A stretch of DNA of 64,000 nt from Gulosibacter sp. 10 (GCF_900163695.1 NZ_FUIC01000027.1:30807-94806); one strand, 5' to 3'. Positions 1,996-42,062 are shown, numbered from the stretch's first letter. Notes: a model not told the origin generated them from the sequence alone. Numbers and translations: made by a program.

Positions 1996-3417
1996 ATGAA
2001 ATTCGTCTCGACCCGTGGCCGGATGACCCCGGCCGGCTTCTCCGACGTCCTCCTCGACGGCCTCGCCTCCGACGGCGGGCTCGTGGTGCCGAGCGAGATC
2101 CCCGCCATCCCGGCCGAGCGGCTCGAGGAATGGCGCGCGCTGCGCTACCCCGAGCTCGCCCTCGAGATCATCGGGCTGTACGCGACGGACATCCCGCGGG
2201 AGGACCTCGAGCGGATCGTGCGGGCGGCGTACTCCGCCGAGCGGTTCGCCGCGCCCGAGACGGTGCCCGTGACCGACCTCGACGAGCGCATCTCGCTCGT
2301 GGGGCTCTCGGAGGGGCCGACCATGGCCTTCAAGGACCTCGCGATGCAGTTCCTCGGCGAGGTCATGCCGTACGTGCTGCAGCGCGCCGGACGCACCCTG
2401 AACATCCTCGGCGCGACCTCGGGCGACACCGGCTCGGCCGCCGAGCACGCGTTCAACGGCAAGGAGAACATCCGCGTCTTCATGCTCTCGCCGCAGGGGC
2501 GGATGAGCGCGGTGCAGCGCGCGCAGATGTACAGCCTCGACGACGAGAACATCCACAACATCGCCGTGGACGGCAACTTCGACGACTGCCAGAACCTCGT
2601 CAAGGCGATCAACGCCGATGCGGAGTTCAAGGCCTCCCACACGATCGGCGCCGTCAACTCGATCAACTTCGGCCGCATCTGCGCGCAGATCGTCTACTAC
2701 TTCTGGGCCTGGCTGCGGGCGACCGACGACGAATCCCGCCGCGAGGCGCCCGTCTCGTTCGCGGTGCCCTCCGGCAACTTCGGCAACATCTTCGCCGGCC
2801 ACCTCGCGCGGCGCATGGGGCTGCCCGTGCACCGCCTCGTGCTCGCGACGAATGAGAACAACGTGCTCGACGAGTTCTTCCGCACCGGCGTCTACCGGCC
2901 GCGCTCGCGCGAGCTCACCCTCGCGACGAGCAGCCCGTCCATGGACATCTCGAAGGCCTCGAACCTCGAGCGGTTCGTGCGCGAGCTCTTCGGCGAGGAC
3001 GCGGAGGGCTTCGCCGAGCGCTGGGCGGAGCTCGACCGCGAGGGCGTGCTCGACCTCTCGGATCAGCGCGAGGCGCTCGAGCGCGAGCACGGCTTCCTCA
3101 GCGGCACGAGCACCCACTGGGACCGGGTGAACACCATCCGGGCCGAGTTCGAGGCGAACGGGGTGATCGTCGACCCGCACACGGCCGACGGCCTCGCCGT
3201 GGCGCGCCGGCTGACCGACCTGCCCGGCCGCATCCTCGTGCTCGAGACGGCGAAGCCCGAGAAGTTCCGCGAGACGATCGAGGAGGCGCTCGGGGACCGG
3301 ACCCCGCCGCTGTCCGCGGAGCTGCTCGAGCTGCTCGAGCGGCCGCAGCGCACCGTGGACATCGAGAACTCGGCGGAGCAGCTGCGCGACTACATCGACG
3401 CGGCCTGCGAGCAGTAG
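1996..3417 (+). CDS. thrC: threonine synthase
   Basis: N-terminal MKFVSTRG signature typical of ThrC. PLP-fold residues (SGNFGN, TSGDTG). Start taken at the MKF methionine, index 5 of the listed ORF. Confidence 0.9.
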   Translation: MKFVSTRGRMTPAGFSDVLLDGLASDGGLVVPSEIPAIPAERLEEWRALRYPELALEIIGLYATDIPREDLERIVRAAYSAERFAAPETVPVTDLDERISLVGLSEGPTMAFKDLAMQFLGEVMPYVLQRAGRTLNILGATSGDTGSAAEHAFNGKENIRVFMLSPQGRMSAVQRAQMYSLDDENIHNIAVDGNFDDCQNLVKAINADAEFKASHTIGAVNSINFGRICAQIVYYFWAWLRATDDESRREAPVSFAVPSGNFGNIFAGHLARRMGLPVHRLVLATNENNVLDEFFRTGVYRPRSRELTLATSSPSMDISKASNLERFVRELFGEDAEGFAERWAELDREGVLDLSDQREALEREHGFLSGTSTHWDRVNTIRAEFEANGVIVDPHTADGLAVARRLTDLPGRILVLETAKPEKFRETIEEALGDRTPPLSAELLELLERPQRTVDIENSAEQLRDYIDAACEQ

Positions 3418-3447
3418 CCCGCCGGCAGCCCCGGCACGGCGACGCCG

Positions 3448-3490
3448 AAGGGGCCGGGACGTGAGAACCTCTCTCGCGTCCCGGCCCTTT
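3448..3490. terminator. GC-rich hairpin (14-bp stem AAGGGGCCGGGACG / CGTCCCGGCCCTTT) between convergent thrC and MFS genes
   Basis: Near-perfect inverted repeat seen directly. Followed by TTT on the + strand. Sits in the 86-bp convergent gap, consistent with a bidirectional terminator. Confidence 0.5.
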
Positions 3491-3503
3491 CGGCCTCTCG
3501 GGC

Positions 3504-4712
3504 TCAGGCCGTGGCAGGCGCGGCGGCGGCCCGGCGCTTCGGCGCCCACATGACGTACACCGAGGCGATGATCGAGACGACGAGCACGCACACGCTCACG
3601 ATGAGCATCGAGGTGAACTGGCCGCCCGAGCCGTCGATGAGGCCTCCGGCCACGAGCGGGCCGATCGCGAGTCCCGTGCCGATCATCAGGTTGGCCGCGT
3701 TCATGCCCTGCGGGCCGCCGACCTTCGAGACCGCCGACATGAGGAACGGCAGCAGCCAGCTCCACGCGAACTTGAACATCATCGCGGAGATGGCGAACAC
3801 GAACGCGGGCACGCCGCCGAGGAGCAGGAGGATGCTCGAGATCATCAGCCCGTAGCCGATGAGCACGAACCAGCGGTACAGCCTGTGCTCGCCGACGATC
3901 GTCGTGAGGAGCGCGGAGACCACGCCCACGAGCGTCGCGAGCGACAGCATCGTGGAGGCCTCGTCGAGGGTCGTGCCTCCGGCCACGGCCACGTCGGCCA
4001 TGTACGTCCACACGCCGCTGAGGCCGATGTAGAAGGTGAGCAGCGCGGCCATGCCGCCCAGGAGCGGGCCGATCTGCAGCGAGCCCGTGGCGGCCGGGGC
4101 CTCGGGCCGCGGCTCGCCGGCGGTCTCGGCCGAGGACCGGCCGCGGCGCAGCTCGTCGCCGCGGAGCAGCCAGGCGGCGGGGATGATGAGCACGCACAGC
4201 ACCACGAGCGTCCAGTAGATCGCCGAGACCGGCTGCGCCGAGAACAGCGCGGGGAAGATCGCGAGGATGAGCGCCCCCATCGCGAGCTGGGAGGCGACGA
4301 ACACCCCGTAGGCGCGACTGGGGTTCGCGGTCTTCGCGCTGATCGACAGCACGATCACCATCACCGAGCCGGCGCCCAGCGCGGTGAGCCCGCGGATCAC
4401 GACGAGCAGCGCGTAGCTGTCGATCATCGCGGTCACGGCGTTGCCGAGGATGACGATGCCGAGGCAGATGAGGCTGACGACCCGGAGGTCGGTGTTCCTC
4501 AGCCAGAGGAAGGCGGGGATGGTGGCGAGGCTGAAGCAGCCGAGCTCCACCGAGAACACGGCGCCCACCTGGAGGGCGTCGAGCGAGAACTGCTCGCCGA
4601 GCTTGGTCGCGATGACGGGCGCGACGAGCAGTACTGCGTTGAACACCGCGGAGAAGGCGGCGATGTAGCCGTAGGCCCTCCGGTCGGAGAGGCGGGGAGC
4701 GGTAGTGGTCAT
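3504..4712 (-). CDS. MFS transporter
   Basis: 402 aa, about 12 predicted hydrophobic helices. Typical MFS composition. Immediately downstream (11-nt gap) of the amidohydrolase gene on the same strand. Confidence 0.8.
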   Translation of the reverse strand: MTTTAPRLSDRRAYGYIAAFSAVFNAVLLVAPVIATKLGEQFSLDALQVGAVFSVELGCFSLATIPAFLWLRNTDLRVVSLICLGIVILGNAVTAMIDSYALLVVIRGLTALGAGSVMVIVLSISAKTANPSRAYGVFVASQLAMGALILAIFPALFSAQPVSAIYWTLVVLCVLIIPAAWLLRGDELRRGRSSAETAGEPRPEAPAATGSLQIGPLLGGMAALLTFYIGLSGVWTYMADVAVAGGTTLDEASTMLSLATLVGVVSALLTTIVGEHRLYRWFVLIGYGLMISSILLLLGGVPAFVFAISAMMFKFAWSWLLPFLMSAVSKVGGPQGMNAANLMIGTGLAIGPLVAGGLIDGSGGQFTSMLIVSVCVLVVSIIASVYVMWAPKRRAAAAPATA

Positions 4713-4722
4713 GGGAGAACTC

Positions 4723-6357
4723 CTAGGAGCGGTCGAAGACCTTCTCGCCCGCGAACCAGGTCTGCAGCGCCTGCGCCTGCAGCAGTTCGTCGAGTTCGCA
4801 GGTCATGGGGTCGAAGTCGAGCACGAGGAAGTCGGCGGACTTGCCGACGCTGATGCTGCCCGTGACGTCGTCGATGCCGAGCGCGCGGGCGGGGTTGATG
4901 GTGGCGAACTCGAGCGCCTCCTGGCGGGTGACCGCCTGCTCGGGCCAGAGGGCGCCGGGCATCGTGCGGGTCGGGTCCTGCCGGGTGATGAGCGAGTAGA
5001 TGGCGGGCCACGGGTCGGGGGAGACCGCCACGGGCCAGTCGGAGCCGGCAGCCACGAGCGCGCCGTGGTCCAGCAGGTCCCGGTTCGGCTGCACCTTGGC
5101 CGCCCGCTCGGCGGGCATCACGGATTTGAAGGACTCGGTGATGACGTTCGGGTACCAGAGCGCCGGGCTGATATCCGCGACGACGCCGAGCTCGCGGAAG
5201 CGGGGCAGATCGGAGGGCTCGATGAACTGCCCGTGGGCGATGTGATAGATCGGCTCGTGGTATCCCGCCCGGCGCACCTGCTCGACGGCGTCGAGCACGG
5301 CGCGCGCCGAGGCGTCGCCGGTGGCGTGGATCTTCGCGGAGATGCCGCGCTCGGCGGTCCTGAGCAGCCAGGACGCGAGGTCCTCCTGCGGCATCGTCAT
5401 GTAGCCGAAGTTGCAGTCCGAGCATCCCGAGTCGTCGAGATAGGGCTCGAGGAAGGCCGCCGTCTTCGCGGGCGGGACGCCGTCGAGGAAGATCTTGATG
5501 AAGTCGGGCCGGTGATGCGTGCTGCGGGTCTCCTCCATCGCGAAGATCACCTCCTCGCCGATGGGCTCGATGCCGAAGATGAACTCCTCGACCGGGCTCG
5601 CCGTGACCACCCAGGCCTTGAGCCGGCCGCGCTCGTCGAGCGACTGCAGCGCCTGCTGGGTCTGGAAGGAGGTCGCGGCGTCCTGGAAGGCGGTGATGCC
5701 GTAGCCGTGCAGCATCTCGATGGCCCGCTCGGAGGAGCGCTCGAGATCCTCGGACGAGAAGGGGGCGATGCGCTCGCGCGCCTTCTCGACCATCATGCCG
5801 CCGGCCTCGTAGAGGATGCCGGTCGCGCGGCCCTCCGCGTCGCGGGCGATCGAGCCGCCGCGGGGGTCGGGCGTGCCGTCGCCGATGCCGGCGATCTCGA
5901 GCGCGAGGCTGTTGGCCCAGCGGTTGTGCAGGCTGTCGTCGGTGAGCACGGCCGGATGGCCGTGGGCGACCTCGTCGAACCGGCGGAGCGCCTCGGGGGA
6001 GTCGAGCTCGGGGAAGAGCCCGGAGCCGACGGAGCCGCCGGTGATCCACGCGCCCTCGGGAAGCTCGCGGGCGTAGGCCTCGACGGCCTCGAACAGTGCC
6101 TCGGCCCCGAGCGTGGGGGCGGCCTTGAACTCGAAGAGGTCCTTGCGGCCGGCGATCATGTGGTGGTTGTGCACGTCGATGAGGCCGGGGATGACGGTGC
6201 GGCCGAGCAGGTCGACCCGTTCGTGGATGTCGGTCAGCCCGGCGACCTCGTCCTCGCCCACGGCGACGATGCGGCCGTCGCGGACGGCGAAGGTTGATGC
6301 GGTCGGCCGGTGCGCCTCGAGCGTGCGCACCGTTCCGTTCTCGAAAACTGTGGTCAT
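4723..6357 (-). CDS. amidohydrolase family metal-dependent hydrolase
   Basis: Amidohydrolase-3-like motifs (IPGLIDVHNHH near the N-terminus, HATGD, SDWPV). Start placed at the internal Met (MTTVFENG) because it is preceded by GAGGAA. The track ORF extends to 6414. Confidence 0.8.
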   Translation of the reverse strand: MTTVFENGTVRTLEAHRPTASTFAVRDGRIVAVGEDEVAGLTDIHERVDLLGRTVIPGLIDVHNHHMIAGRKDLFEFKAAPTLGAEALFEAVEAYARELPEGAWITGGSVGSGLFPELDSPEALRRFDEVAHGHPAVLTDDSLHNRWANSLALEIAGIGDGTPDPRGGSIARDAEGRATGILYEAGGMMVEKARERIAPFSSEDLERSSERAIEMLHGYGITAFQDAATSFQTQQALQSLDERGRLKAWVVTASPVEEFIFGIEPIGEEVIFAMEETRSTHHRPDFIKIFLDGVPPAKTAAFLEPYLDDSGCSDCNFGYMTMPQEDLASWLLRTAERGISAKIHATGDASARAVLDAVEQVRRAGYHEPIYHIAHGQFIEPSDLPRFRELGVVADISPALWYPNVITESFKSVMPAERAAKVQPNRDLLDHGALVAAGSDWPVAVSPDPWPAIYSLITRQDPTRTMPGALWPEQAVTRQEALEFATINPARALGIDDVTGSISVGKSADFLVLDFDPMTCELDELLQAQALQTWFAGEKVFDRS

Positions 6358-6625
6358 TGGTGTTCCTCGATGAGTGCGGATAGCGGCTGGTCGGCGCCGA
6401 GGCGCATCCGTCATGCGGAGCCTCGGAGCGAGCGTGCGTTGTGTCTACTAGTGGTTTACGAATGCTCCCATCAGTTGCTAACTGTTGGGGCCACCCTAGG
6501 CCGGACGGCGGGCGTCGGGAATACGGATGCGAATTCCAGACTCGCCGTCTGGTGATCGGAATCAGTGTTCGAATTCCGGATGCGCCCATCGCGCCCGCGA
6601 CTCGGGGCCGCGCGCGGCGCGCGCG

Positions 6626-7399
6626 TCAGGCGGGGAAGGAGGAGCGCCCGGTGTAGCCGAAGTCGGAGAGCAGGTTGACCCCGTTGACGGCTCGCGAGCG
6701 GGGGGATGCGAGATAGGCCACGCTCCACGCGATGTCCTCGGCGCTCTGCACCGGGTAGTCGACGTGCTCGAAGGACTCGACGCCGAGACCCTCTCTGGCC
6801 AGCGGCGTGTCGACGATGGAGGGGCAGACGCTGTTGACGCGGATGCCGTGCGCGTCGTGCAGCTCGACGGCCAGGGCCCTGGTGAGCTGGACCAGCGCGC
6901 CCTTGGAGGCGTTGTAGGCGAGCATCCCCGGCACGGAGACGAATCCCGAGTCGGAGCCGATCAGGACGACGCTGCCACAGGGCGACTCCTTGAGGAACGG
7001 GATCGCGGTCCGCACGGCGACGAACGCGCCCACGACGTTGACGTCGAGCACCTCGCGGAAGGAGTCCGTCGTGACCTCCTCGCAGGCGGCGCCCATCTCG
7101 CCGTCGATGCCGGCGGAGCAGACGAGCAGATCGATGCCGCCGAGCTCGTCGCCGAGATCGCGGACGGCCGCCGTCAGGGCGGACTCGTCGCCGACGTCGG
7201 CGGCTGCGGTGCGCACGTCCCCGGGCTCCCCGGCCAGCTCGGCCCGCGCGCGGGCGAGCCGTTCGTCGCTCCGTCCGATGATGCCCACGACGGCGCCCTC
7301 CGCGGCGTAGTGCCGGGCGACCGCCAGGCCGATGCCGGAGGAGCCGCCGGTCACGACGATGCGGCTCGGGGCGGTGGTGGTGTTCGCGAGTTCTGCCAT
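6626..7399 (-). CDS. SDR family oxidoreductase
   Basis: Start at Met index 96 of the track ORF (MAELANTT...) with an AAAGAGG RBS. The region upstream of that in the ORF is junk-like. TGGSSGIG and YNASKGAL SDR motifs. Confidence 0.8.
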   Translation of the reverse strand: MAELANTTTAPSRIVVTGGSSGIGLAVARHYAAEGAVVGIIGRSDERLARARAELAGEPGDVRTAAADVGDESALTAAVRDLGDELGGIDLLVCSAGIDGEMGAACEEVTTDSFREVLDVNVVGAFVAVRTAIPFLKESPCGSVVLIGSDSGFVSVPGMLAYNASKGALVQLTRALAVELHDAHGIRVNSVCPSIVDTPLAREGLGVESFEHVDYPVQSAEDIAWSVAYLASPRSRAVNGVNLLSDFGYTGRSSFPA

Positions 7400-7592
7400 C
7401 GGTCGGGCCTCTTTCTCGAATGCGTCCTCGTTGACGCGGATACCGTACCCACGTCCGGCGGGGGAAAAGGAATACGAGTTCATTGACCAGACTCCGAGTC
7501 TGATGAATAGACTCGTCTTCCGGACATCGGTCTCCGGGAACAGGATGGGTCCACGCCAGAAACGCTCGCGAAGGCTCCCGAAAGGAACCAGC

Positions 7593-9917
7593 ATGACCAA
7601 TCTCTCCCGCAACGAAGCGCTCGAGCTCGCAGCAGCGGCCCTGCCCTCATTCGGCCTCGCGCCCGACTCCGCCGTCGAGTTCGTCAAGTACCGCGAGAAC
7701 GTCGTCTTCCGCGTCGTCGACGGCGAGGACGCCTATGCGATGCGCGTGCACCGGCTCGATCACCGCACCGAGGCGGAGGTGCGGACCGAGAACGCCTACA
7801 TGCAGCGGCTCGGCGAGGCCGGATTCCCGGTGTCGGAGGTGGTGCCGGCGATCGACGGCGAGCTCTTCGCGGTCGTGGGCGACGGCCGCGGGCGCGAGCA
7901 CCAGATCGACGTGCAGCGCTGGGTCGCGCAGTCCGCGCCCCTGGGCGACATCGCGGAGGCCTGGGAGGGGACCGCCGAGCACGACCCGGAGTTCTTCGCG
8001 GAGCTCGGCGAGCTGTGCGGCGGCTTCCACGCCGTCTCGGCCGAGCTCGGCCGCATCCCGGGCTACTCCCGCAAGCCGTGGGACCTCGACGGCCTCACGG
8101 GAGCGGAGCCGCTCTGGGGCGACCCGCGCCGATTCGCCAAGACCGAGGAGGACCGGGCCGTCATCGACACCGCGCTCGCGAACGTCAGGGCTGAGCTCGA
8201 GGCGCTGGGCACGGGGCCGGAGGCGTACGGCGTCATCCACTCGGACTTCACGCCGGAGAACGTGCTGCTCTCGCCCGGCGGGATGACCCTCATCGACTTC
8301 GACGACTTCGGGGAGGGCTGGTGGCTCTTCGACCTGGCCACGGTGCTGTTCTGGTACCACTGGCATCCGCGCGGCGAGGAGTTCGCCGAGGCGCTCATCG
8401 AGGGTTACGAGCGGCGCTTCCCGATCCCCGAGGCCGCCCGCGCCGCGCTCGGGGGCCTCGTGGTGGCCCGCGCCCTCACCTACTTCGGCTGGGCGGCGGA
8501 CCGCCCCGGCGATGAGACCAGCGAGTTCCACCGCATCGAGCAGTACCCCGCGGTGCTCGAGCTGTGCCGCGAATACAACGACCGCCGGGCGGGCGACCGC
8601 GCCGGCGAGAACGGAGCAACGATGATGACCGACAGCAGCAACGACGACCTCATCGAGCGCCGCAACCGGACGCTCGGCCCCTATTCGCCGCTGTTCTACC
8701 GCGAGCCGCGCCACTTCGTCGAGGGCGACGGCGTATGGCTCACCGACGTGCACGGCGAGCGCTACCTCGACGCCTACAACAACGTGCCGCATGTCGGGCA
8801 CGCGAACCGCCGGGTCGCCGACGCGGCCGCCGAGCAGCTGCGCACCTACAACGTCCACACCCGCTACCTCAGCGAGCCGGTGGTGCGATACGCCGAGGAG
8901 CTGCTCGCCACCTTCGAGTCGCCGCTGGACCGGGTGTACTTCACCAACACGGGCTCCGAGTCGAACGAGCTCGCCCTGCGCATCGCCCGCCACCGCACCG
9001 GCAGCAGCGGCATCATCGTCACCGACCACAGCTATCACGGCAACACCATCACCCTGGCCGCGCTCACCACCGGGCTCCAGGTCTCGGAGCCGCGGGGCGC
9101 GAACATCCGCACGATCCACGTGCCCGACGCCTATGAGGGCGACGAGGCGCAGCTGCTCGAGGCGGCGCTGCGCGAGGTCGACGAGGCGATCGATTCGCTC
9201 GTGGCCGAGGGCTTCGGGGTCTCGGCGCTGCTGATCGAGCCCGTGTTCTCCACCGAGGGGCTGCCGACGGTGCCCGAGGGCTACCTCGCCGGGCTCGTCG
9301 ACCGGGTGCGCGCCGCGGGCGGGCTCATCATCTCCGACGAGGTGCAGGCCGGGCTCGGGCGGCTCGGCGACGACTGGTGGGCGCACCAGGCGACGGGCTT
9401 CGTGCCCGACCTCGTGACGCTCGGCAAGCCGCTCGGCAACGGCTACCCGCTCGGCGGGGTCGTGACCACCGAGGCGCTGCTCGACGACTTCAGCTCGCAG
9501 AACGAGTACTTCAACACGTTCGCCGGCACCCCGGCGGCGGCCGAGGCCGGGCGCGCCGTGCTCGCCGAGATCCGCGACCGCGACCTCGTGAACCGCACCG
9601 GGGAGCTCGGCCGGCACGTGTCCGAGCGGCTGCAGGACCTCGTCGCCCGGCATCCGAACGCGGCCGCGGCCAAGGGCCGCGGGCTGTTCTTCGGCCTCGC
9701 GATCGTGGATGCGCAGGGCCGCCCGGACGGCGCGCTCGCGAAGGAGATCGTCGAGCGCCTCGTCGCCCGGCGCATCCTCATCAGCAAGATCGGCCCCGCC
9801 GACAACGTGCTGAAGATCCGCCCGCCGATGGTCATCGAGCGCGAGGAGCTCGACCTGATCCTCGACGCCCTCGACGAGGCGCTCGCCGAGATCGAGCGCT
9901 CCGCCGCGCGCTCATGA
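7593..9917 (+). CDS. fusion protein: aminoglycoside-phosphotransferase (APH)/hydroxylysine-kinase-like kinase domain + class III (AGXT2-like) PLP-dependent aminotransferase/phospho-lyase domain
   Basis: 774 aa from the ATG at 7593 (AAAGGA RBS). N-terminal half has APH-fold motifs (HSDFTPENVLL, IDFDD). C-terminal half has the class III aminotransferase fold (SGSESNELA, DEVQAGLGRLG, TLGKPLGNGYPLG with the Schiff-base Lys). Confidence 0.8.
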   Translation: MTNLSRNEALELAAAALPSFGLAPDSAVEFVKYRENVVFRVVDGEDAYAMRVHRLDHRTEAEVRTENAYMQRLGEAGFPVSEVVPAIDGELFAVVGDGRGREHQIDVQRWVAQSAPLGDIAEAWEGTAEHDPEFFAELGELCGGFHAVSAELGRIPGYSRKPWDLDGLTGAEPLWGDPRRFAKTEEDRAVIDTALANVRAELEALGTGPEAYGVIHSDFTPENVLLSPGGMTLIDFDDFGEGWWLFDLATVLFWYHWHPRGEEFAEALIEGYERRFPIPEAARAALGGLVVARALTYFGWAADRPGDETSEFHRIEQYPAVLELCREYNDRRAGDRAGENGATMMTDSSNDDLIERRNRTLGPYSPLFYREPRHFVEGDGVWLTDVHGERYLDAYNNVPHVGHANRRVADAAAEQLRTYNVHTRYLSEPVVRYAEELLATFESPLDRVYFTNTGSESNELALRIARHRTGSSGIIVTDHSYHGNTITLAALTTGLQVSEPRGANIRTIHVPDAYEGDEAQLLEAALREVDEAIDSLVAEGFGVSALLIEPVFSTEGLPTVPEGYLAGLVDRVRAAGGLIISDEVQAGLGRLGDDWWAHQATGFVPDLVTLGKPLGNGYPLGGVVTTEALLDDFSSQNEYFNTFAGTPAAAEAGRAVLAEIRDRDLVNRTGELGRHVSERLQDLVARHPNAAAAKGRGLFFGLAIVDAQGRPDGALAKEIVERLVARRILISKIGPADNVLKIRPPMVIEREELDLILDALDEALAEIERSAARS

Positions 9918-10537
9918 CTCCCTCGGCAGCCGGTCCCGGCACCGGCGGCGTGCCGCTGTCGCTGCGCGAGCGCCAGCTGCAGCGGACCCGCGAGGACCTC
10001 ATCCGCGCGACGATCGACGTCATCGCGGAGGTGGGGCTCGAGCAGGCGACCGTGCAGCGCATCACCGCGCGGGCCGGGACGTCGCGGGCGACGCTCTACG
10101 CGCATTTCCCCGATGGCCGGGACGACCTGTACGCCCAGGCGTACCGGGCGCTGGGGCGCGGGCTCATCCAGCGCTCGGAGCAGCTCGCGTCGGAGTGCGA
10201 GACGAGCGTGGACCGGCTGTGCGCCTACACGCAGGCGATGATCGAGCTCGCCGCGCAGCGGCAGCTCGGCCTGTTCTACAACGTCTCGGGGCCGCGGCTC
10301 GCGGGCATGAAGTTCCGCGGCAGCGGCTCGCAGCGGACGCTGGACGCCTTCATCGTGGAGCTGAAGGGGGCGCAGGAGCGCGGCGAGATCGCGGAGTCGC
10401 TCGACATCGAGGCCGTCTCGGCCCTGCTGGTCGGGGCCATCCGCGAGACCGGCATCGATACGGCGCGCAATCCGTCGGTCGCGCGCCGCTCCCTCGCGGC
10501 CTTCCGGCAGCTGATCGAGGCGCTCTGGAACCGATGA
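9914..10537 (+). CDS. TetR/AcrR family transcriptional regulator
   Basis: ATG at 9914 overlaps the stop of the fusion gene (ATGA). N-terminal HTH (LEQATVQRITARAGTSRATLYAHF). Confidence 0.8.
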   Translation: MTPSAAGPGTGGVPLSLRERQLQRTREDLIRATIDVIAEVGLEQATVQRITARAGTSRATLYAHFPDGRDDLYAQAYRALGRGLIQRSEQLASECETSVDRLCAYTQAMIELAAQRQLGLFYNVSGPRLAGMKFRGSGSQRTLDAFIVELKGAQERGEIAESLDIEAVSALLVGAIRETGIDTARNPSVARRSLAAFRQLIEALWNR

Positions 10538-10550
10538 GCCGGCCGCGGCG

Positions 10551-11090
10551 TCACAGCGCCGCCAGCGCGGCGACCGCGTCCCGGACGAGGGCGCGGTCGG
10601 GCGGAGCGGACTGCAGCGTGCGGTGGATCGTCCAGCCCTCGATGAGCGCGTCGATCGCCACGCGAGCCCGCTCGCCGAAGTGGGGCGCGAGCGACTCGTA
10701 GCTGCGCGCGATCAGCTCGGCGGCCATCGTCCCGACGGCCTCGTCGTGGCCCGCGTACGCGTACATCTCGTAGATCAGCTGCTGATCGCCGCGGTCCGCG
10801 ACCTCCGGGCCGCAGATGATCGTGGTCACCGCCTCGACGGCGCCCTCGCGGTCGAGCGTCTCGGGGAGCAGGGCGGCGTAGCGCGAGGCGAGGGTGTCGC
10901 CGAGCAGCGCGAAGGCGCGCTCCAGGATCTCCTGCAGATCGGCGAAGTGGTACGTGCACAGCCCCGGCGAGACGCCGGCCGCGGCGGCGATCTTCCGATG
11001 TGTGGTCTTGTGCACGCCCTCGGCGGCGATGACCTCGAGCGCGCCGTGCAGGATCGCGGTCGGGCCCTCCGGCTGGGGATTGGCGGGCAT
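10551..11090 (-). CDS. TetR/AcrR family transcriptional regulator
   Basis: 179 aa. HTH TTHRKIAAAAGVSPGLCTYHF. Divergent from the MFS gene at 11222. Confidence 0.8.
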   Translation of the reverse strand: MPANPQPEGPTAILHGALEVIAAEGVHKTTHRKIAAAAGVSPGLCTYHFADLQEILERAFALLGDTLASRYAALLPETLDREGAVEAVTTIICGPEVADRGDQQLIYEMYAYAGHDEAVGTMAAELIARSYESLAPHFGERARVAIDALIEGWTIHRTLQSAPPDRALVRDAVAALAAL

Positions 11091-11148
11091 CGTCCTCCTC
11101 GGGTGCGTCCTCCGCCGGCGGCGGAAGGGGTTCTCCCGAAGGGTAGTG

Positions 11149-11181
11149 CCTGTACAGTTGTCCAGGCTGTACTGACGTACA
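11149..11181. promoter_or_regulatory. candidate TetR operator: palindromes CTGTACAG and TGTAC-N4-GTACA in the divergent tetR/MFS intergenic region
   Basis: Self-complementary 8-mer at 11150-11157 and an inverted repeat at 11168-11181, seen directly. Position between divergent regulator and transporter genes is typical of TetR operators. Confidence 0.35.
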
Positions 11182-11221
11182 ACGCCTGTCCGGGCCGCGC
11201 CCCTCGACGATCGGAGCCGAT

Positions 11222-12385
11222 TTGGAGTTCACGCCGCACGTCCGCCGCAACGCCGTCTTCGCGCTGTTCATGATCCCCGGGCTCGCGCTGTCCACCTGGG
11301 TGACGCGCACGCCGGACATCCGGGATCTCGTCGGCGCGAGCACCGCGGAGATGGGGCTCATCCTGTTCGGGCTGTCGATCGGCTCCATGATCGGCGTGCT
11401 CTGCTCCGCGCCGCTCGTGCGACGGTTCGGGACGAGGTCGGTGATCGGCGCCGGGACGACGCTGGTCGTCGCCGGCCTGGCCGGCATCGGCCTCGCGGCG
11501 GCGCTCGCCTCGGGGCCGCTCGTCGCGGCTGCGCTGATGCTGTTCGGCCTGGGCATGGGCGGCGGCGAGGTCGCCATCAACGTGGAGGGCGCCGACGTCG
11601 AGCGGGCGCTCCGGCGGCCGGCCATGCCCGCGATGCATGGCATGTTCAGCGTGGCGGTCACCATCGGCGCCTCGCTCGGCATCCTCGGCAACGCGCTGCG
11701 GGTGCCCATCGCCGTGCACACGGCGGTGCTCGCCGCGGTGTCGGCGCTCGTGCTCGTCGCCGCGCTGCGCCGGGTGCCGCCGGGCACGGGGCGCGCCGGC
11801 CGGAACTCGATGCCAGGGGGCTCCCGCTCGCTCCTCCGGGAGCGCGCACTGCTGCTCATCGGCGTCGTGGTGCTCGCGATGGCCTTCACCGAGGGCGCCG
11901 CCAATGACTGGCTGCCGCTCATCCTCGTCGACGGCCACGGATTCAGCGCGACCGCCGGCGCCTTGGCCTACGCGGGGTTCGCAGCGGCGATGGCGATCGG
12001 GCGGTTCGCGGCAGGGCCCCTGCTGCGTCGGTTCAGCAGGGCCGCGGTGGTGCGCTCGAGCGCGCTCGCAGGCGCGGTCGGCCTCGTGCTGGTCATCTTC
12101 GCGGAGTGGCCGCCCGCGGTGCTGTTCGCCGTGCTGCTGTGGGGCCTTGGCGCCTCGGTCGGCTTCCCTGTCGCGATGTCCGCGGCGGGGGATTCCGGGC
12201 CGGACCCCACCGCCCGGGTGTCGCTCGTTGCGACGGTGGGCTACATCGCGTTCCTGGTCGGACCGCCGGCGCTGGGATTCCTGGGGGAGGCGTTCGGGCT
12301 GCGGCCGACGATGCTCGTGATCGTGGCGCTCCTCGGACTGGCCTTCCTCGCGGCCTCCGCGGTGGGGCGCGGGCGGAAGGATTGA
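11222..12385 (+). CDS. MFS transporter
   Basis: 387 aa, multi-helix hydrophobic protein. Divergent from a TetR gene. Confidence 0.8.
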   Translation: MEFTPHVRRNAVFALFMIPGLALSTWVTRTPDIRDLVGASTAEMGLILFGLSIGSMIGVLCSAPLVRRFGTRSVIGAGTTLVVAGLAGIGLAAALASGPLVAAALMLFGLGMGGGEVAINVEGADVERALRRPAMPAMHGMFSVAVTIGASLGILGNALRVPIAVHTAVLAAVSALVLVAALRRVPPGTGRAGRNSMPGGSRSLLRERALLLIGVVVLAMAFTEGAANDWLPLILVDGHGFSATAGALAYAGFAAAMAIGRFAAGPLLRRFSRAAVVRSSALAGAVGLVLVIFAEWPPAVLFAVLLWGLGASVGFPVAMSAAGDSGPDPTARVSLVATVGYIAFLVGPPALGFLGEAFGLRPTMLVIVALLGLAFLAASAVGRGRKD

Positions 12386-12400
12386 CCTCGGCCTCCCAGA

Positions 12401-12434
12401 GAGTTAGGGTCACCTTAGTTATTGGCCCTAACTC
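12401..12434. promoter_or_regulatory. 9-bp inverted repeat GAGTTAGGG-N16-CCCTAACTC immediately upstream of the tetR-irtA-irtB module
   Basis: Seen directly in the 58-bp gap between the MFS stop (12385) and the TetR start (12444). Weak (11/19) similarity to an IdeR box only. More consistent with a TetR-type operator. Confidence 0.35.
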
Positions 12435-12443
12435 GGGAGGCGC

Positions 12444-13142
12444 GTGGTGACGAACATCGGCGGGAGACCGCGTCGCATCGATCGGCGGGATATCCTCCGC
12501 GTCGGTCTCGGCATCGGACTCCGGGACCTCAGCCTCAACGCCGTGGCCTCAGCGCTCGGCGTCTCCGCGGCGGCGCTGTACCGGCACGTGGACGGGCGAT
12601 GGGGGCTCGAGCAGCTGGTGGGGGAGCACCTGCTCGCCGAGCTGCGCCTGCCCGACGACCCGGAGCGGGACGCGGCGGGGCACCTCGTCGACTTCGGGCT
12701 CGCGCTGCGCGAGTCCGTGCTCGGCCATCCCGGCCTCGCCGCGTACCTGCAGACGCTCTTCCCGCGCGGGGACGGCGGCCGGGCGCTGCTCGTCGCCGAG
12801 ATCGAGGCGCTCGGCCGCCGCGGCTACGCGCCGGCGACCGCGCTGGTGCTCGCGAGCGCCGTCGCCTCGCACACCATCGGCTACGCCGCCGGCGAGGAGA
12901 TCCAGCGGGATCGGGGCGCGGAGCTCGAGCAGCACCGCGATCGCGTGCTGTCCGGGATCATGGCCGACGAGCGGCTCCAGCTCGCGCACACCGACCTGCC
13001 GCAGGTCGACTCGGCGGGCTATTTCCGGCTCGTGCTCATGGCGGTGGTCGACGGGCTCGTGGCCGCCGCGCCGAAGGATCGATCCGTGCACGAGGTGGTG
13101 GCCGCGCTCGAGGCGCGCCACTGCCGAGAGGCGGTGCGCTGA
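12444..13142 (+). CDS. TetR-like transcriptional regulator
   Basis: GTG start preceded by [28 protein letters not shown]. Its stop overlaps the irtA-like start (ATGA at 13140-13144). Confidence 0.7.
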
Positions 13143-15829
13143 TGGCGAAGCGGGGCTTCCAGGGCGCGATCATGCGCGGCTTCGGCGCCCGCGACCACAT
13201 CGCGGTCGTCACGGGCAGGGAGTACCTCGCCGAGCACTTCGTGCGCGTGCGCATGACCTCCGAGACGCTCTTCGACGAGGCGGTGACGGGGCCGGCGGCC
13301 TGGGCCCGCTTCTGGTTCCCCGACCCCGACGGGGGCGAGGCCGAGTACCAGCGCGGCTACACCTTCAGCGAGGCCGATGCGGCCACCGGCGAGTTCGCCG
13401 TCGACTTCGTCCTGCACGAGCCCGCCGGCCCGGCCTCGATCTGGGCCAGGACGGCCGAGCCGGGCTCGGCCGTGCCGGTGCAGGCCGTCGCGACCACCCG
13501 ATTCGACCTCCCGGCCGAGACGCCCGAGGGGTTCCTGCTCATCGGCGACTCCGCGTCGATCCCGGCCATCGGCGGGATCCTCGAGGCGCTGCCCCGAGAC
13601 GTCCCGGTCGAGGTGTACCTCGAGCAGCACGAGGACGCGGACGCGACGATCCCGCTGCCGCGGCATCCCCTCGCGCGCATCCACCGACTGCCGCGGGAGG
13701 GCGCCGACTCGCTGGCCCGCGGCATCGAGGCGCGCGACTGGTCCAACTGGTACGCCTGGATCACGCCGGAGTCCGGCTCCCTCAAGCACCTGCGCACCCG
13801 GCTCCGCGACGAGTTCGGGTTCCCGAAGTCGGAGATGCACCCCCAGGCGTACTGGATCGAGGGCCGCTCCATGGGGAAGATGCGCAACGAGGACGCCGCG
13901 GATGCGGTGCCCGCGGCCGCATCCGTGTCCGAAACCGCGACCGTTCCCGGCGTCGCCGCGGGGGCCGACGGCGCGCGATCGCCCGAGCCGCAGCCCGAGT
14001 CCCGGCCACAGCCCGAGCCCGCCGCCTCCGCGCCCAGGGGCGAGTGGCGGGCGAACGCGGCCGGGCGGCTGCTCGCGCCCCTGCGGATCACCTTCTGGCT
14101 CGCGGGGATCCTGCAGGGCATCGTCACGCTCGTCGAGCTCGCGCCCTTCGTCCTGCTCGTCGAGCTGTCGCGGCTGCTGCTCGAGGGCGCCGAGCCCGCG
14201 CGGCTCTGGACGGTGGGCCTGTGGGCGGCGGGGCTCATGGCCGCGGGCGCGCTGTGCTCGGCGGGGCTGCTCCTCTGGCTCCACGCGGTGGATGCGCGGC
14301 TCTCGAGGGACCTCCGCCGCCGACTGCTCGGCAAGACGGCCCGCCTGCCGCTCGGCTGGTTCGACGCGCGAGGATCGGGCGGGGTCAAGCAGCTCATGCA
14401 GGACGACACGCTGTCGCTGCACTACCTCGTGACCCACGCGGTGCCGGACGCCGTCGCCGCGGCGCTCGCGCCGATCGCCGTGCTGGTGTACCTCTTCGTC
14501 GTCGACTGGCGGCTCGCGCTCGTCCTGCTCGTGCCGGTGCTCGTCTACGTCGTGACGATGTACGGCATGATCGTGCGCAGCGGGACGCGGACGCGCCAGG
14601 CGGTGGCCTGGTCCGAGCGCATGAACGAGGAGGCCGGCGCGTACCTCGAGGGGCAACCCGTGGTCCGCGTCTTCGGCGGGGCCGCGGCCTCCGGCTTCCG
14701 AGCGGCGCTGGGGGAGTACATCCGCTTCCTCGACGCCTGGCAGCGGCCCTTCACCGGGCAGAAGACGGTCATGGACCTCGCGACCCGCCCGGCGACCTTC
14801 CTGCTGCTCATCCTCGGGGTCGGCGCCCTGCTCGTGACCGGCGGCTCGATGGATCCCATCGCGCTCCTGCCCTTCCTGTTCCTCGGGACCACCTTCGGCG
14901 CGCGGCTCCTCGGCATCGGCTACGGACTCTCGGGGCTTCGGGAGGGGCTGCTCGCGGCCAAGCGCATCCAGGTGGTTCTCGACGAGCCCGAGCTCGAGAC
15001 CCGTCCGGCGGAGGCGCCCGCGGCGAAGGGGCCCGTGGGCGAAACGGCCCCGGGGCTCGTGGAGTTCGAGGGCGTCGGATTCGCCTACCGCCCCGGGGCG
15101 CCGGTGCTGCAGGGCATCGATCTGCGGCTCGAGCCGGGCACCGTCACCGCGCTCGTCGGCCCGTCCGGCGCGGGCAAGTCCACCCTGGCCGCCCTCCTCG
15201 CGCGCTTCCACGACCCCGTCGACGGCGCCATCCGCGTCGGCGGCGCGGACCTCCGCGAGCTCGGCGCCGACGAGCTGTACTCCCGCGTGGGCTTCGTCTT
15301 CCAGCAGACGCAGCTCGTCCGCGGCACGGTGCGGGAGAACATCGCCCTCGCCGTCCCCGACGCCGACGACGACCGGGTGGTCGCGGCGGCGCGGGCCGCG
15401 AACATCCACGAGCGGATCCTGCGCCTCCCGGACGGGTACGAGACGGAGCTCGGCCCCGGAGCCGCGCTCTCCGGCGGCGAGCAGCAGCGGCTCACCATCG
15501 CCCGGGCGATCCTCGCCGACTCGCCGGTGCTCGTCCTCGACGAGGCGACCGCGTTCGCCGACCCCGAGTCCGAGCACCTCGTGCAGCAGGCGCTGAGCCG
15601 CCTCACCGCCGGTCGCACGGTGCTCGTCATCGCCCACCGGCTGCACACGATCACCCGCGTCGACCGGATCGCCGTGCTCGAGGAGGGGCGCCTCGTCGAA
15701 TCCGGGACGCACGACGAGCTGCTCCGGCGCGACGGCACCTACCGCAGACTCTGGCACGCCGGCGGCTACGAGGAGCGCCCCGCCCGGGCATCCGAGCCGG
15801 CGGCCACCGGGAAGGAGACCCGCGCATGA
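13142..15829 (+). CDS. irtA: IrtA-like siderophore importer subunit: N-terminal siderophore-interacting (FAD-binding, ViuB/SIP-like) domain fused to ABC exporter-fold transmembrane domain and ATPase
   Basis: 895 aa. N-terminal about 250 aa has the SIP/FAD-binding RxYT motif (QRGYTFSE). A six-helix TMD follows. C-terminal NBD has Walker [10 protein letters not shown], the LSGGEQQR signature and Walker B VLVLDEAT. Confidence 0.85.
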
Positions 15830-17559
15830 TCCGGACGTTCCTCGACCTGCTGCCGAGCGGCAGCCGCGCGCGCCTCGCAGCGCACCTGGCACTGACCCTG
15901 CTGAGCGTCGCGCTGCGCGCCGCCGGCATCGTGCTCCTGGTGCCCGCCCTCGCCGCGCTGTTCGGCCCCGAGCCCGCAGGAGCCTGGCCGTGGATCGGCG
16001 CACTGGCGGCCGCGACCGTCGCGGGCTGGATCGTCGACTGGGTCGTGGCCCGCATCGGCTTCGACCTCGGCTTCGGACTCCTCGAGCACGGGCAGGCCGC
16101 CGTCGCGGAGCGCATCGCCCGAATCCGGCTCGGCTGGTTCGACGTCGAGCATGCGGCGGCCGCGCGACGCGCCGTGGCGGCCACCGGCCCGGAGCTCGTC
16201 GGGCTCATCGGCTATCTCGTGACCCCGCTGCTCAGCGCCGTGCTGCTGCCGATCGCGATCGGGGTCGCGCTCCTCCCGATCGCGTGGCCGCTGGGCGTCG
16301 CCGCGCTCATCGGCGCACCGCTCCTGCTCGGCGCCTTCTGGGCCTCCTCCGCCCTCGGCCGGCGGGCGGACGCCGAGGCGGCGGCGACGAACAGCGATCT
16401 CACCGAGCGGATCGTCGAATTCGCCAGGGTGCAGCAGGCGCTGCGGGCCTCGCGTCGGGTCGAGCCGGCGCGCAGCAGCGCGGGCGAGGCGCTCGCCCGC
16501 CAGCACGGGGCCGGCATGCGCCTGCTCCTGATGCAGGTGCCGGGGCAGATCGTCTTCAGCCTCGCGACGCAGCTCGCGCTGATCGTCCTGGCCGGCACGA
16601 CCGTGCTGCTCACCACCGGCGGAGCCGTGAGCATCCCCGAGGCGATCGCGCTCATCGTCGTGATCGTCCGCTACCTCGACCCGTTCCTCTCGCTGGGCGG
16701 GCTCGCCCCCGGCCTCGAGTCGGCCTCGCGCACGCTGCGCGACATCGGGCGCGTGCTCGACGCCGAGCCGGTGCGCGAGGGCGCCGAGCGCGTGCCGGCC
16801 GCCGACGCCCCCGCGATCGAGCTCCGGGGGGTCGGGTTCCACTACGGCGACCCGGCGCAGCCCGTGCTGGAAGGGCTCGACCTCCGGATCGAGGCGGGCA
16901 CGACCACCGCGATCGTCGGCCCCTCCGGCTCGGGCAAGAGCACCGTCCTGGCGCTCATCGCGGGCCTGCACGAGCCGACCTCGGGGCGGGTGCTGGTGGA
17001 GGGCGTCGACCTCGCCGCCCTCGATGCGGGCAGCCGCGCCGCGCTCATCACCATGGTCTTCCAGCAGCCCTTCCTCTTCGACGGCACGATCCGCGAGAAC
17101 GTGCTCGTCGGCGCCCCGGGCGCCCGGGAGGCCGCGCTCGAGCACGCCGCACGGCTCGCCCGCGTGGATGCGGTCGTCGCGGGCCTGCCCCGCGGCTGGG
17201 AGACGCGTACGGGCGAGGGTGGCGCATCGCTCTCCGGCGGGGAGCGGCAGCGCGTCTCCATCGCGCGGGCGCTGCTCAAGCCGGCGCCCGTCCTGCTCGT
17301 GGACGAGGCGACCAGCGCGCTCGACACCGAGAACGAGGCGGCCGTGGTGGCCGCGCTGGAGGAGGACCCCAGGCGCCGCACCCGGGTGATCGTCGCCCAC
17401 CGGCTCGAGAGCGTCCGGCGCGCGGACCGGGTCCTGTTCCTCGAGGAGGGCCGGATCGTGGAGGACGGGCCGGTGGAGGCGCTCCTGCGGGCGAGCGGTC
17501 GGTTCGCCGAGTTCTGGCGGCGGCAGGACGCGGCCTCGGGGTGGCGGATCCGCGACTAG
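15826..17559 (+). CDS. irtB: IrtB-like ABC transporter permease/ATP-binding subunit
   Basis: 577 aa. ATG overlaps the irtA-like stop (ATGA) and is preceded by GAAGGAG. TMD plus NBD ([28 protein letters not shown]). Confidence 0.85.
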
Positions 17560-22657: not shown

Positions 22658-23950
22658 TCAGCGCCCCGCCGCGGCGTCGATCGCCCGGACGAGCCCATCG
22701 GGGAGCAGCGCCTGCCACCAGTGCGCGTCGTGCCCGCCGACGGCGGTGTCGAAGGAGAGCAGGCCGCCCTGCACGCGCAGCAGCTCGGCGGCCTGGCGGA
22801 TATCCCGGAACAGGTCCCATTCGAGCACTCCGCCCTGGAGGACGAGCGGGGAGGGCCGTGCCGCGGCGGCGCGCTCGCCGAACCAGGTGCCCCGGCCCTC
22901 GCCGAACCGGCCGCTGTTGGGCCACCAGAACGACGGGGACTGCGCGACCCCGGCCAGCACGAGGTCGGGGTCGCGGGTCGCGGCGAGCGCGGTGAAGAGC
23001 CCGCCGAGGCTCTGCCCCGCGAGGATGAGGCCGGCGCTCCGCGGGGCTCCCGCCGCGCGCACCGCTTCGAGCAGCGCGCGCATCGCCTCGGCGTCGGCCG
23101 TGTAGTCGACCGTCCGCTGCCGGGGGCCGCCGGACTCCAGCAGGAGCACGTGGACCGGCTCGCAGCCGCCCGCATCGATGCGTCGCTCGAGCTCCGCGAC
23201 GATCGGGTACTGCTCGTGCCACACCTCGCCGTCGAGGAGCAGCACGGCGGGCGACTCCGGGGTCGCGCGGGGATGCGACCAGCGGTGCAGCGCGAGCGGC
23301 TCGCCGTTCGAGGGGCTCGGGATGCGCACGGGCCCGTCGAGCTCGGCGCGCTCGGCGAGGCGCAGCTCCGGGGCGCCCGGCCCGCGGCCGACGGCCAGGC
23401 GCACGGGGCCGAGCTTGTTCGGCGCGTACTCGCGCGCGTGCGGATCCTCGACGAGCCGGGCGCGCAGCCCGGCCGCGAGCGCCATGTCGACCGGCGCGTG
23501 GAGCCGCGGCGCGGGCAGCGGCGAATCGGGGAGGACGAACTGATACGTGCCGAGCCAGGCGGACGGCAGCTCGAGCGTCAGCGAGTGCAGCCGGGTCTCC
23601 GCGATCGGCGCGAGGGCGGTATCGGCCGGGTCGAGGATGTCGCTGATCTTGTTGGCGAACAGCAGGACTCCGTGGGGCGCCTCGCCGTGCCAGAGGAAGG
23701 TGACGAGGACCTCGCCGTCGTCCCCCGCGGCCGGCTCGACGAGCGGGGTCCCCTGGGCGCGCAGGGCCGTCGCGAGCTCCGCCGCCCGCCGCTCGCGCTC
23801 CTCCGGGCCGGCGATCACGGCGAGCTCGGCCCGCACCGCCTCGACGCGCGGCGATTCGGCCACGGGCAGCGGCCACGGGCGGATCGAGTGCGGCGGCATG
23901 GTGGGATCGCGGCGGGCGCCGTGCTGCGGTGCGGTTCGTGCTGCGGACAT
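22658..23950 (-). CDS. enterochelin-esterase-like (Fes/IroE family) alpha/beta hydrolase
   Basis: 430 aa with a GAAGGAG RBS. C-terminal esterase domain has the nucleophile elbow GQSLGG. An N-terminal domain precedes it, as in Fes. Located at the distal end of the siderophore ABC operon. Confidence 0.7.
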   Translation of the reverse strand: MSAARTAPQHGARRDPTMPPHSIRPWPLPVAESPRVEAVRAELAVIAGPEERERRAAELATALRAQGTPLVEPAAGDDGEVLVTFLWHGEAPHGVLLFANKISDILDPADTALAPIAETRLHSLTLELPSAWLGTYQFVLPDSPLPAPRLHAPVDMALAAGLRARLVEDPHAREYAPNKLGPVRLAVGRGPGAPELRLAERAELDGPVRIPSPSNGEPLALHRWSHPRATPESPAVLLLDGEVWHEQYPIVAELERRIDAGGCEPVHVLLLESGGPRQRTVDYTADAEAMRALLEAVRAAGAPRSAGLILAGQSLGGLFTALAATRDPDLVLAGVAQSPSFWWPNSGRFGEGRGTWFGERAAAARPSPLVLQGGVLEWDLFRDIRQAAELLRVQGGLLSFDTAVGGHDAHWWQALLPDGLVRAIDAAAGR

Positions 23951-24009
23951 CGGGGATGCTCCTTCTCTGGCGATGCGGTTCGGGGATGGTCGGGTTCGGG
24001 CGGCCGGGG

Positions 24010-25952: not shown

Positions 25953-25953
25953 G

Positions 25954-29064: not shown

Positions 29065-29168
29065 GATCGTCCTTTCGGGGGTCGACGATGCGTCGAAGGC
29101 CGGCACCGCGGCGGCGAGGGATTCGCGTGGCCGTGGAAGGGCCGGATTCGCGCATCACTGAGCATTGG

Positions 29169-42039: not shown

Positions 42040-42062
42040 GCCCTCAAGGCTACTCGCTCCGG

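Follow-up and report, generated by a model that had tools for sequence, protein, structure and literature searches.

We analysed a group of genes at positions 3504-12385 of a 64,000-nucleotide stretch of Gulosibacter sp. 10 DNA (GCF_900163695.1, NZ_FUIC01000027.1:30807-94806); this whole stretch is called the window below. The region consists of three units, not one island. Unit A (6626-10537) holds a gene for a short-chain dehydrogenase/reductase (SDR) and, divergently transcribed from it, the genes for a kinase-phospholyase fusion and a TetR-family regulator, TetR_A. Unit B (6357-3504) is formed by the genes for an amidohydrolase and a transporter of the major facilitator superfamily (MFS), MFS1, and unit C (10551-12385) by those for a second regulator and a second transporter, TetR_B and MFS2. 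The best explanation of the region as a whole, and one that we consider probable, is that unit A breaks down an amino alcohol, that unit B has been recruited to it through TetR_A, and that unit C is unrelated. An earlier note, made from the sequence, had proposed an inducible unit for the uptake and catabolism of an N-acylated or amino-alcohol compound. The amino-alcohol core of that proposal stands, with kinase-lyase, SDR, and a TetR behind a conserved palindrome, and an N-acylated precursor is plausible, but TetR_B and MFS2 fall outside it.

The window has a G+C content of about 72%, a composition at which raw lists of open reading frames (ORFs) are useless. Gene models were built from frame analysis of the G+C at third codon positions (GC3) together with Pfam, and they were cross-checked against independent gene calls on identical public contigs. 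The Pfam scan covered 38 window proteins, all but those of a few genes beyond 53 kb; every gene assignment in 3504-12385 is backed by a Pfam match. Naming with NCBIfam gave no match that reached the curated cut-off for any of the eight cluster proteins. The gene models and Pfam bear out the kinds of gene listed in the earlier note (two MFS, amidohydrolase, SDR, fusion enzyme), as well as the divergent arrangement, with the SDR on the minus strand and the fusion and TetR on the plus strand. The features of units A and B are as follows.

3504-4712, minus strand: MFS1 transporter, 402 aa (Pfam MFS_1, E 9e-16)
4723-6357, minus strand: YtcJ-like amidohydrolase (Amidohydro_3), 544 aa (PF07969, E 1.4e-92)
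6358-6625, minus strand: non-coding leader, 268 bp (GC3 frame analysis)
6518-6577, no strand assigned: predicted second TetR_A-type operator in the leader, reading GGAATACG-N10-CCAGACTC-GCC-GTCTGG, then GGAATCAGTGTTCGAATTCC
6626-7399, minus strand: SDR, 257 aa (Pfam adh_short, E 6e-50)
between 7399 and 7593, no strand assigned: SDR/fusion divergent spacer, 193 bp, carrying the composite palindrome
7469-7521, no strand assigned: predicted composite palindromic operator, 53 bp, with 26-nt arms that are 81% complementary
7593-9917, plus strand: fusion of an aminoglycoside phosphotransferase (APH) domain and an Aminotran_3 domain, 774 aa (Pfam APH, E 4e-25; Aminotran_3, E 7e-67)
9914-10537, plus strand: TetR_A, 207 aa (TetR_N, PF00440, E 3.6e-11)

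The kinase-phospholyase fusion and its dehydrogenase

The fusion protein has an APH-fold kinase half (residues about 1-340) and a phospholyase half that depends on pyridoxal phosphate (PLP; residues about 345-774). The second half contains an aminotransferase class-III (fold type I) PLP domain, PF00202, at residues 375-764, and its similarity to characterised lyases far exceeds that to the transaminases, racemases, and decarboxylases of this fold. It matches the crystallised phospholyase 5g4i over its full length (E 4e-147, about 53% identical) and the human ethanolamine-phosphate phospho-lyase ETNPPL (6tor) with an E of 2e-83, whereas the best non-lyase class-III protein of solved structure, a racemase, reaches only 2e-44. 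The lysine that forms the Schiff base with PLP is kept in GKPLGNG (motif GKP(M/L)GNG), where LVTLGKPLGNGYP aligns with VTMGKPMGNGHP of 5g4i and 6tor. The kinase half matches PF01636, and its best solved relative is 6ef6 (E 1.2e-30), followed by amicoumacin kinase (4e-14). The entry 6ef6 was deposited as an 'aminoglycoside phosphotransferase' and has been identified as an aminopropanol kinase (PMC7314540). Both the catalytic HxDxxxxN and the metal-binding DxD motif are intact, as IHSDFTPEN and IDFDDFG align with their 6ef6 equivalents. Since the two halves match 6ef6 and 5g4i, the fusion very probably joins both steps of a known amino-alcohol route. The kinase half would phosphorylate a vicinal amino alcohol with ATP, and the phospholyase half would eliminate phosphate and ammonia from the resulting O-phosphate, which yields an aldehyde. 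The bifunctional protein may pass the phospho-intermediate directly from one half to the other.

An assembly artefact was ruled out as the origin of the fusion, because Arthrobacter, Zafaria, Paeniglutamicibacter, Citricoccus, and metagenomes together supply 12 homologues, 60-72% identical, that share its length and architecture. The same lyase also occurs in other fusions (proteins P0069, P0084, P0097, and P0103; L087, 12672-15626). Zafaria has a 984-aa APH+Aminotran_3 protein near its 769-aa fusion, and in proteins of about 935 aa the lyase is fused to an aldehyde dehydrogenase, one of them being annotated as 'phenylacetaldehyde dehydrogenase StyD'. A lyase-then-kinase gene order is found in loci L105-L113 and L129-L131.

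The window proteins were mapped onto 47 retrieved loci with genes for relatives of the fusion (the L numbers used here). The block of SDR, divergent fusion, and TetR_A is kept in L086-L090, L096, and L097, with identities of 67-74% for the SDR, 63-73% for the fusion, and 57-75% for the TetR. In about 12 further loci, SDR orthologues with 55-74% identity occur together with kinase and lyase genes that are split or re-ordered. In all, the SDR orthologues adjoin kinase/lyase genes in about 19 loci, including one on plasmid pTC2. The set of SDR, kinase, lyase, and TetR thus recurs across Micrococcales in differing flanks. Its usual partners in the orthologous loci are a GabP-type amino-acid permease and an aldehyde dehydrogenase. 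The start of the window SDR at 7399 agrees with the 257-258-aa length of its orthologues. On the basis of this association, the SDR would be the amino-ketone/amino-alcohol dehydrogenase of the pathway, and it would interconvert the two compounds and feed an aminoacetone-type substrate, or the wrong enantiomer, to the kinase.

As the substrate we tentatively favour 1-amino-2-propanol/aminoacetone, at a little short of even confidence. It is preferred over ethanolamine because the constant presence of the SDR argues for a keto/hydroxy interconversion. Use of ethanolamine by way of phosphoethanolamine, with an ethanolamine kinase, an acetaldehyde-forming lyase, and an SDR that handles the aldehyde or is only loosely associated, seems unlikely to us, although the closest characterised lyases are named phospholyase (5g4i) and ethanolamine-phosphate phospho-lyase (6tor), and ethanolamine is far commoner in nature than aminopropanol. 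Ethanolamine would need no dehydrogenase step before phosphorylation, yet the SDR orthologue is kept beside the kinase and lyase in the roughly 19 loci. In addition, the best solved relative of the kinase half is an aminopropanol kinase, and in sister clusters it is aldehyde dehydrogenases, not SDRs, that take the aldehyde.

A hydroxylated amino acid, such as 5-hydroxylysine or 4-amino-3-hydroxybutyrate, would be handled in the same way as by the animal hydroxylysine kinase and phosphohydroxylysine phospholyase. A permease of the GabP/AA_permease type is present in the orthologous clusters, with semialdehyde-type aldehyde dehydrogenases nearby, and a 2012 study by Veiga-da-Cunha et al., cited in PMC8154272, reportedly mentions bacterial kinase-lyase fusions in the context of hydroxylysine. 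We nevertheless hold such a substrate to be very improbable. The window has an MFS transporter and not an amino-acid permease, and the permease does not discriminate in any case, as the RMM/Aut aminopropanol loci also use one of the GabP family (PMC6620236).

The TetR_A operator and the amidohydrolase operon

The start of the TetR_A gene overlaps the stop codon of the fusion gene (ATGA), an arrangement for translational coupling, and TetR_A orthologues (53-75% identical) lie directly 3' of the fusion gene in L086-L091, L096, and L097. The palindrome at 7469-7521 has GTCTG and CAGAC half-sites that alternate about 10 bp apart, between the flanks GGAATA and TCTTCC. When the orthologous SDR/fusion spacers are aligned, the same design is found throughout, with half-sites about 10 bp apart and flanks GGAATA and TATTCC, and the core palindrome CAGAC-N5-GTCTG precedes the fusion start by about 105-110 nt. 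We scanned the related loci with the pattern [CT]AGA[AC]-N5-[GT]TCT[AG]. Seven loci (L087-L091, L104, and the window) have exactly one match each at about 105-110 nt 5' of the fusion start, and L086 and L096 have versions with one mismatch. In the related loci scanned, the pattern was found at no other place except 6537-6551 in the leader of the window amidohydrolase.

The earlier note had pointed to unusual repeats in this leader, and they are real and above chance. In the 64 kb of the window, CCAGACTC-N3-GTCTG occurs only at 6536-6551 and 7487-7502, with 0.13 occurrences expected, and GGAATACG-N10-CCAGACTC only at 6518 and 7469, plus the opposite arm at 7496-7521, with 0.03 expected. The half-sites and the GGAATACG flank are alike in the two copies, and nearly all spacer bases differ. 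Because flank and half-sites agree while the spacers diverge, this looks like selection on bases contacted by a protein, not like a recent duplication. TetR_A would be the repressor of both sites (7469-7521 and 6518-6577). It would repress the divergent promoters of unit A through the 7469-7521 palindrome, and a pathway metabolite would release it. As the palindrome recurs in the amidohydrolase leader, the amidohydrolase-MFS1 operon and the fusion operon may form one TetR_A regulon, a suggestion to which we give an even chance; the second operator would then be what brought unit B under the same control.

The leader at 6358-6625 is non-coding and exactly 268 bp long, as had been claimed. There is no coding signal in any frame, and the G+C is about 0.60 at all three codon positions. 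It is probably the promoter region of the amidohydrolase-MFS1 operon. At its SDR-proximal end (about 6600-6635) the leader has a GC-rich hairpin. Because this hairpin directly follows the SDR stop codon, the simplest reading is that the operon is transcribed separately and has its own TetR_A-type operator. Two other explanations of the leader were rejected. A riboswitch or structured leader found no support, since no Rfam family matched the leader at E <= 1 and the fold z-score of -1.9 is marginal; the three matches in the Rfam scan of the region are sub-threshold, at chance level, and all outside the leader. A remnant of a deleted permease was dismissed when a tblastn search with AA_permease against the window found nothing. 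A scan for consensus sigma-70 promoters and terminators found none of the former and, inside a gene, a single terminator-like site that is at chance level, the consensus being uninformative for a high-GC actinobacterium. By eye, a possible promoter of the fusion operon (TTGACC-N19-TAGACT) can be placed so that it overlaps the 7469-7521 operator.

The amidohydrolase matches PF07969 over its full length (profile positions 3-472 of 472) and has the HxH metal motif in DVHNHH at residues 61-66. Its tight linkage to MFS1 is confirmed, but the gap measures 10 nt and not the 11 nt given before; an AGGAG Shine-Dalgarno sequence overlaps the amidohydrolase stop codon. Its solved relatives 3igh and 3icj, both uncharacterised, match at E 1e-16 at best, and hundreds of close homologues are all named 'amidohydrolase YtcJ', without a functional name. 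Characterised YtcJ-like enzymes (NfdA, the epsilon-lysine acylase SmELA, and the metallo bile-salt hydrolase BwBSH1) free primary alkyl amines from N-acyl or N-formyl amides (PMC13081902, PMC10699109). By analogy, the window amidohydrolase would act on an N-acyl or N-formyl conjugate and set free a primary amine or an amino alcohol, and MFS1 would import this amide substrate.

Amidohydro_3 proteins of two clades stand beside kinase/lyase clusters in the window, L086, L088 (as a remnant), L089, L090, L093, and L115/116. Clade A comprises the proteins of the window, L088, L094, and L095, which are 58-71% identical (58-59% between the window and the L094 and L095 copies) and occur as an amidohydrolase-MFS pair. 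Clade B, about 40% identical to clade A, is found in or beside the kinase/lyase clusters of L086, L089, L090, and L115/116, and a more distant Amidohydro_3 (33% identical) adjoins the split kinase/lyase cluster of L093. MFS homologues of MFS1 (44-73% identical) follow the amidohydrolase in L088, L089, L090, L094, and L095. This repeated association, the shared operator, and the chemistry of the YtcJ-like enzymes together suggest that the amidohydrolase may feed amino alcohol to the kinase, which we regard as possible, at somewhat less than an even chance. In the full route, MFS1 would import an amino alcohol in N-acylated or N-formylated form (such as an N-acyl-ethanolamine or N-acyl-aminopropanol), the amidohydrolase would free the amine, and the fusion would cleave it by kinase and phospholyase action, all under TetR_A. 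Such a three-stage route as a whole remains doubtful; to our knowledge, it has not been described in bacteria.

A clade A pair in another setting is that of L095 (Zafaria cholistanensis, 4540-15085). This nearest named homologue pair adjoins genes for a copper amine oxidase, two regulators (a TetR and an AraC), an amino-acid permease, and an aldehyde dehydrogenase, an amine-catabolic setting that fits an amine-releasing role for the clade A amidohydrolase.

Several observations weigh against our explanation of units A and B. The nearest solved relatives of the SDR are generic alcohol dehydrogenases and hydroxypropyl-CoM dehydrogenases (E about 1e-32), and the comparison with solved structures linked it to no characterised aminopropanol dehydrogenase specifically. 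The enzyme 5g4i was reportedly characterised on phosphoethanolamine, a substrate for which no SDR would be required. No homologue of an aldehyde dehydrogenase or amino-acid permease was found anywhere in the 64-kb window, which leaves the local pathway incomplete. The operator in the leader is about 180 nt 5' of the amidohydrolase start codon, the consensus scan placed no promoter there, and elsewhere this second operator copy is found only on contigs 100% identical to the window. Finally, because the clade A amidohydrolase-MFS pair occurs in L094 and L095 without kinase/lyase genes nearby, the coupling of the amidohydrolase to the pathway may be recent or incidental.

It could be, then, that the amidohydrolase-MFS1 operon is merely adjacent and that the leader motif is a relic without function, left by a recombination event between two modules. 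The isolated clade A pairs would fit this, as would the leader, which keeps only the central palindrome and one flank and in which no promoter was located. In L088, the closest relative (72-75% identical), only a 94-aa C-terminal remnant of the amidohydrolase is left (3638-3922) while SDR, fusion, and TetR are intact, and the coupling is therefore dispensable. However, Amidohydro_3 proteins of two clades lie beside kinase/lyase clusters in at least six loci, and in L115/116 one lies inside the operon of the SDR and the aldehyde dehydrogenase. Furthermore, the bases in which the two window sites match lie in the half-sites, which are kept from genus to genus, whereas the spacers differ, unlike what neutral decay of a duplicate would give. 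We consider mere adjacency somewhat unlikely.

Unit C, the neighbouring genes, and the island question

Outside units A and B, the region and its left border contain the following features.

1996-3417, plus strand: thrC, 473 aa, left neighbour of the cluster
3441-3497, no strand assigned: GC-rich inverted repeat between the convergent thrC and MFS1 genes, with 26-nt arms (88% complementary) and a 5-nt loop
10551-11090, minus strand: TetR_B, 179 aa (TetR_N, E 2.6e-10)
11091-11221, no strand assigned: TetR_B/MFS2 divergent spacer, 131 bp, with short palindromes and repeats
11222-12385, plus strand: MFS2 transporter, 387 aa (MFS_1, E 2e-23)

The hairpin at 3441-3497 is probably a bidirectional terminator without a T-tract and marks the left end of the cluster. 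The solitary thrC gene encodes a protein of the long type (473 aa), which has both a Thr_synth_N and a THR4_C domain.

A second divergent TetR/MFS pair had been described with palindromic operators. The pair is there, but its spacer holds only short palindromes, CTGTACAG at 11150-11157 and CTGTAC at 11167-11172, the latter as part of GTACAG-N9-CTGTAC, and they are indistinguishable from chance. No homologue of either TetR_B or MFS2 occurs in the 47 related loci, and BLAST found no similarity between MFS2 and MFS1. The pair is treated as an unrelated neighbour that would lie outside the pathway. MFS2 is probably an efflux pump or another transporter under TetR_B. In L088, an aldehyde dehydrogenase gene (8580-9452) follows TetR_A at the place where the window has TetR_B and MFS2.

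Of the three TetR genes counted before in 3504-12385, only two lie inside, and a third within the region is excluded, as there is no coding space for another gene. The likely third is the TetR-like gene at 12444-13142, outside the region and below the Pfam threshold (21.3 bits against a cut-off of 24). It belongs with a siderophore importer and runs into an IrtA-like SIP+ABC fusion gene (13142-15829) that is followed by an IrtB-like gene (15826-17559). Directly upstream of it lies a 34-bp palindrome at 12401-12434, GAGTTAGGGTCA-N10-TGGCCCTAACTC, which may be an operator or iron box of this importer. A second iron-uptake block at 22658-29106 consists of an enterochelin-esterase-like gene, an ABC ATPase, two FecCD permeases, and a periplasmic binding protein. 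Further along the window there are two SPFH/Band-7 proteins (31214-32572 and 45963-47453) and, at 42063-43214, a protein like the baeRF family 11 of archaeo-eukaryotic release-factor-like proteins (E 1e-31), between a DeaD-type RNA helicase (40153-42375) and an HrpB-type helicase (43280-45850). The baeRF and DeaD ORF calls overlap by about 300 nt, and one start is probably wrong.

The region had been described as a compact accessory island that contrasts with housekeeping flanks. As a single island it does not hold together. It falls into three units, TetR_B/MFS2 is found in none of the 47 related loci, the clade A amidohydrolase-MFS pair is also found alone, and there is no compositional or mobility signal. 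The contrast with the flanks is weak as well, since the upstream genes are a creatininase-family gene, an SDR, a methyltransferase, and the solitary thrC. The gene order is not that of a universally conserved core genome either. The flanks of the modules differ in every genome examined, in Paenarthrobacter aurescens TC1 the genes lie on the conjugative plasmid pTC2, and kinase/lyase pairs are present on many rhizobial plasmids. These three facts are evidence that the modules move over evolutionary time; at the present site there is no sign of recent acquisition.

It is improbable in our judgement that 3504-12385 as a whole is a genomic island of recent acquisition. Besides the differing flanks and the conjugative plasmid, the absence of block genes beside thrC in all 80 related thrC loci (other Micrococcales and beyond) and a G+C slightly lower (0.69-0.71) than that of some flanks could be read in favour of it. 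However, the lower-GC stretch already includes thrC, and per-gene G+C, GC3, and codon usage lie in the range of the window. In the codon-usage check that had been proposed, the cluster genes have a G+C of 0.70-0.74 and a GC3 of 0.94-0.98, within the 0.68-0.79 and 0.88-0.99 of the window. The search for a tRNA target at the site found no tRNA genes, no 9-mers or longer repeats are shared by the block borders, and no integrase or transposase turned up among the Pfam-scanned window genes. The thrC comparison is uninformative on recent gain, as the best relative (Pseudoclavibacter) is only 69% identical and the thrC flanks are kept in none of the 80 loci. The only contigs that carry the block are those 100% identical to the window.

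Significance and comparison with known systems

These results do not overturn current understanding; their value lies in annotation and in tools. Bacterial kinase/phospholyase clusters outside microcompartment loci are largely unannotated, with their proteins labelled 'aminotransferase', 'homoserine kinase', or 'YtcJ'. The locus and its relatives offer a ready natural kinase-lyase fusion, and the conserved TetR operator could serve as an amino-alcohol-responsive switch. There is also a testable link between an orphan clade of amidohydrolases and amino-alcohol catabolism, and the structure 5g4i is now placed in an operon on pTC2, which helps to guess its physiological substrate.

The TetR_B/MFS2 pair resembles TetR/TetA and QacR/QacA in that it is likewise divergent, with a 131-bp spacer that holds short palindromes. 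The similarity is at the family level only, and NCBIfam gave nothing above its cut-offs. With the YtcJ-like (COG1574/PF07969) enzymes NfdA, SmELA, and BwBSH1, the window amidohydrolase has in common the full-length PF07969 domain and the HxH metal motif, without a demonstrated close sequence relationship to any characterised member.

The biochemistry of the amino-alcohol kinase/phospholyase route has been known for decades, and structures have been solved for each of its enzymes. Animals pair an APH-type kinase with a phospholyase, as the window does. The lyase half shares its class-III-fold lyase chemistry with the animal ETNPPL/AGXT2L1 (6tor; E 2e-83), and the hydroxylysine kinase with PHYKPL is the other animal system of this kind. 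In animals, the kinase and phospholyase are separate proteins, without an operon, SDR, or repressor, whereas in the window they are fused. PMC8154272 cites the animal enzymes in its reference 31.

Among bacterial systems, the RMM/Aut loci for 1-amino-2-propanol encode an SDR, an APH kinase, a class-III enzyme, a permease, and an aldehyde dehydrogenase (PMC4207490, PMC6620236, PMC6787980). The RMM/Aut loci of Mycobacterium smegmatis and Rhodococcus have in common with the window that SDR, APH kinase, and class-III enzyme are encoded together. They have shell genes, a GntR regulator, a GabP-family permease, and an acylating aldehyde dehydrogenase, whereas the window has a TetR and a fused kinase/lyase; no microcompartment shell genes (PF00936/PF03319) were found among the 38 Pfam-scanned window proteins.

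A cluster without fusion is present on pTC2 (L132, CP000476.1, 4422-11876). The gene for 5g4i (phospholyase A1RDF1, PDB 5g4i/5g4j) is AAur_pTC20101 of this plasmid, which matches all 446 residues (E 2.6e-297). It lies in a cluster that reads SDR, amino-acid permease, and 'homoserine kinase' (APH), then, divergently, TetR, lyase, and aldehyde dehydrogenase. This context may mean that the physiological substrate of 5g4i is of the aminopropanol type and not only phosphoethanolamine. The SDR is 55%, the APH kinase 44%, and the lyase 53% identical to the window counterparts, the PLP lysine is kept, and the TetR, only 34% identical to that of the window, is divergent from the kinase side. In contrast to the window, the pTC2 kinase and lyase are separate genes on opposite strands, and the cluster has the amino-acid permease and aldehyde dehydrogenase and no adjacent amidohydrolase. 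The window is without the former two and has, in addition, an amidohydrolase-MFS operon with a second operator. The locus is thus a fused, TetR-controlled version, outside any microcompartment, of the known amino-alcohol kinase/phospholyase pathway.

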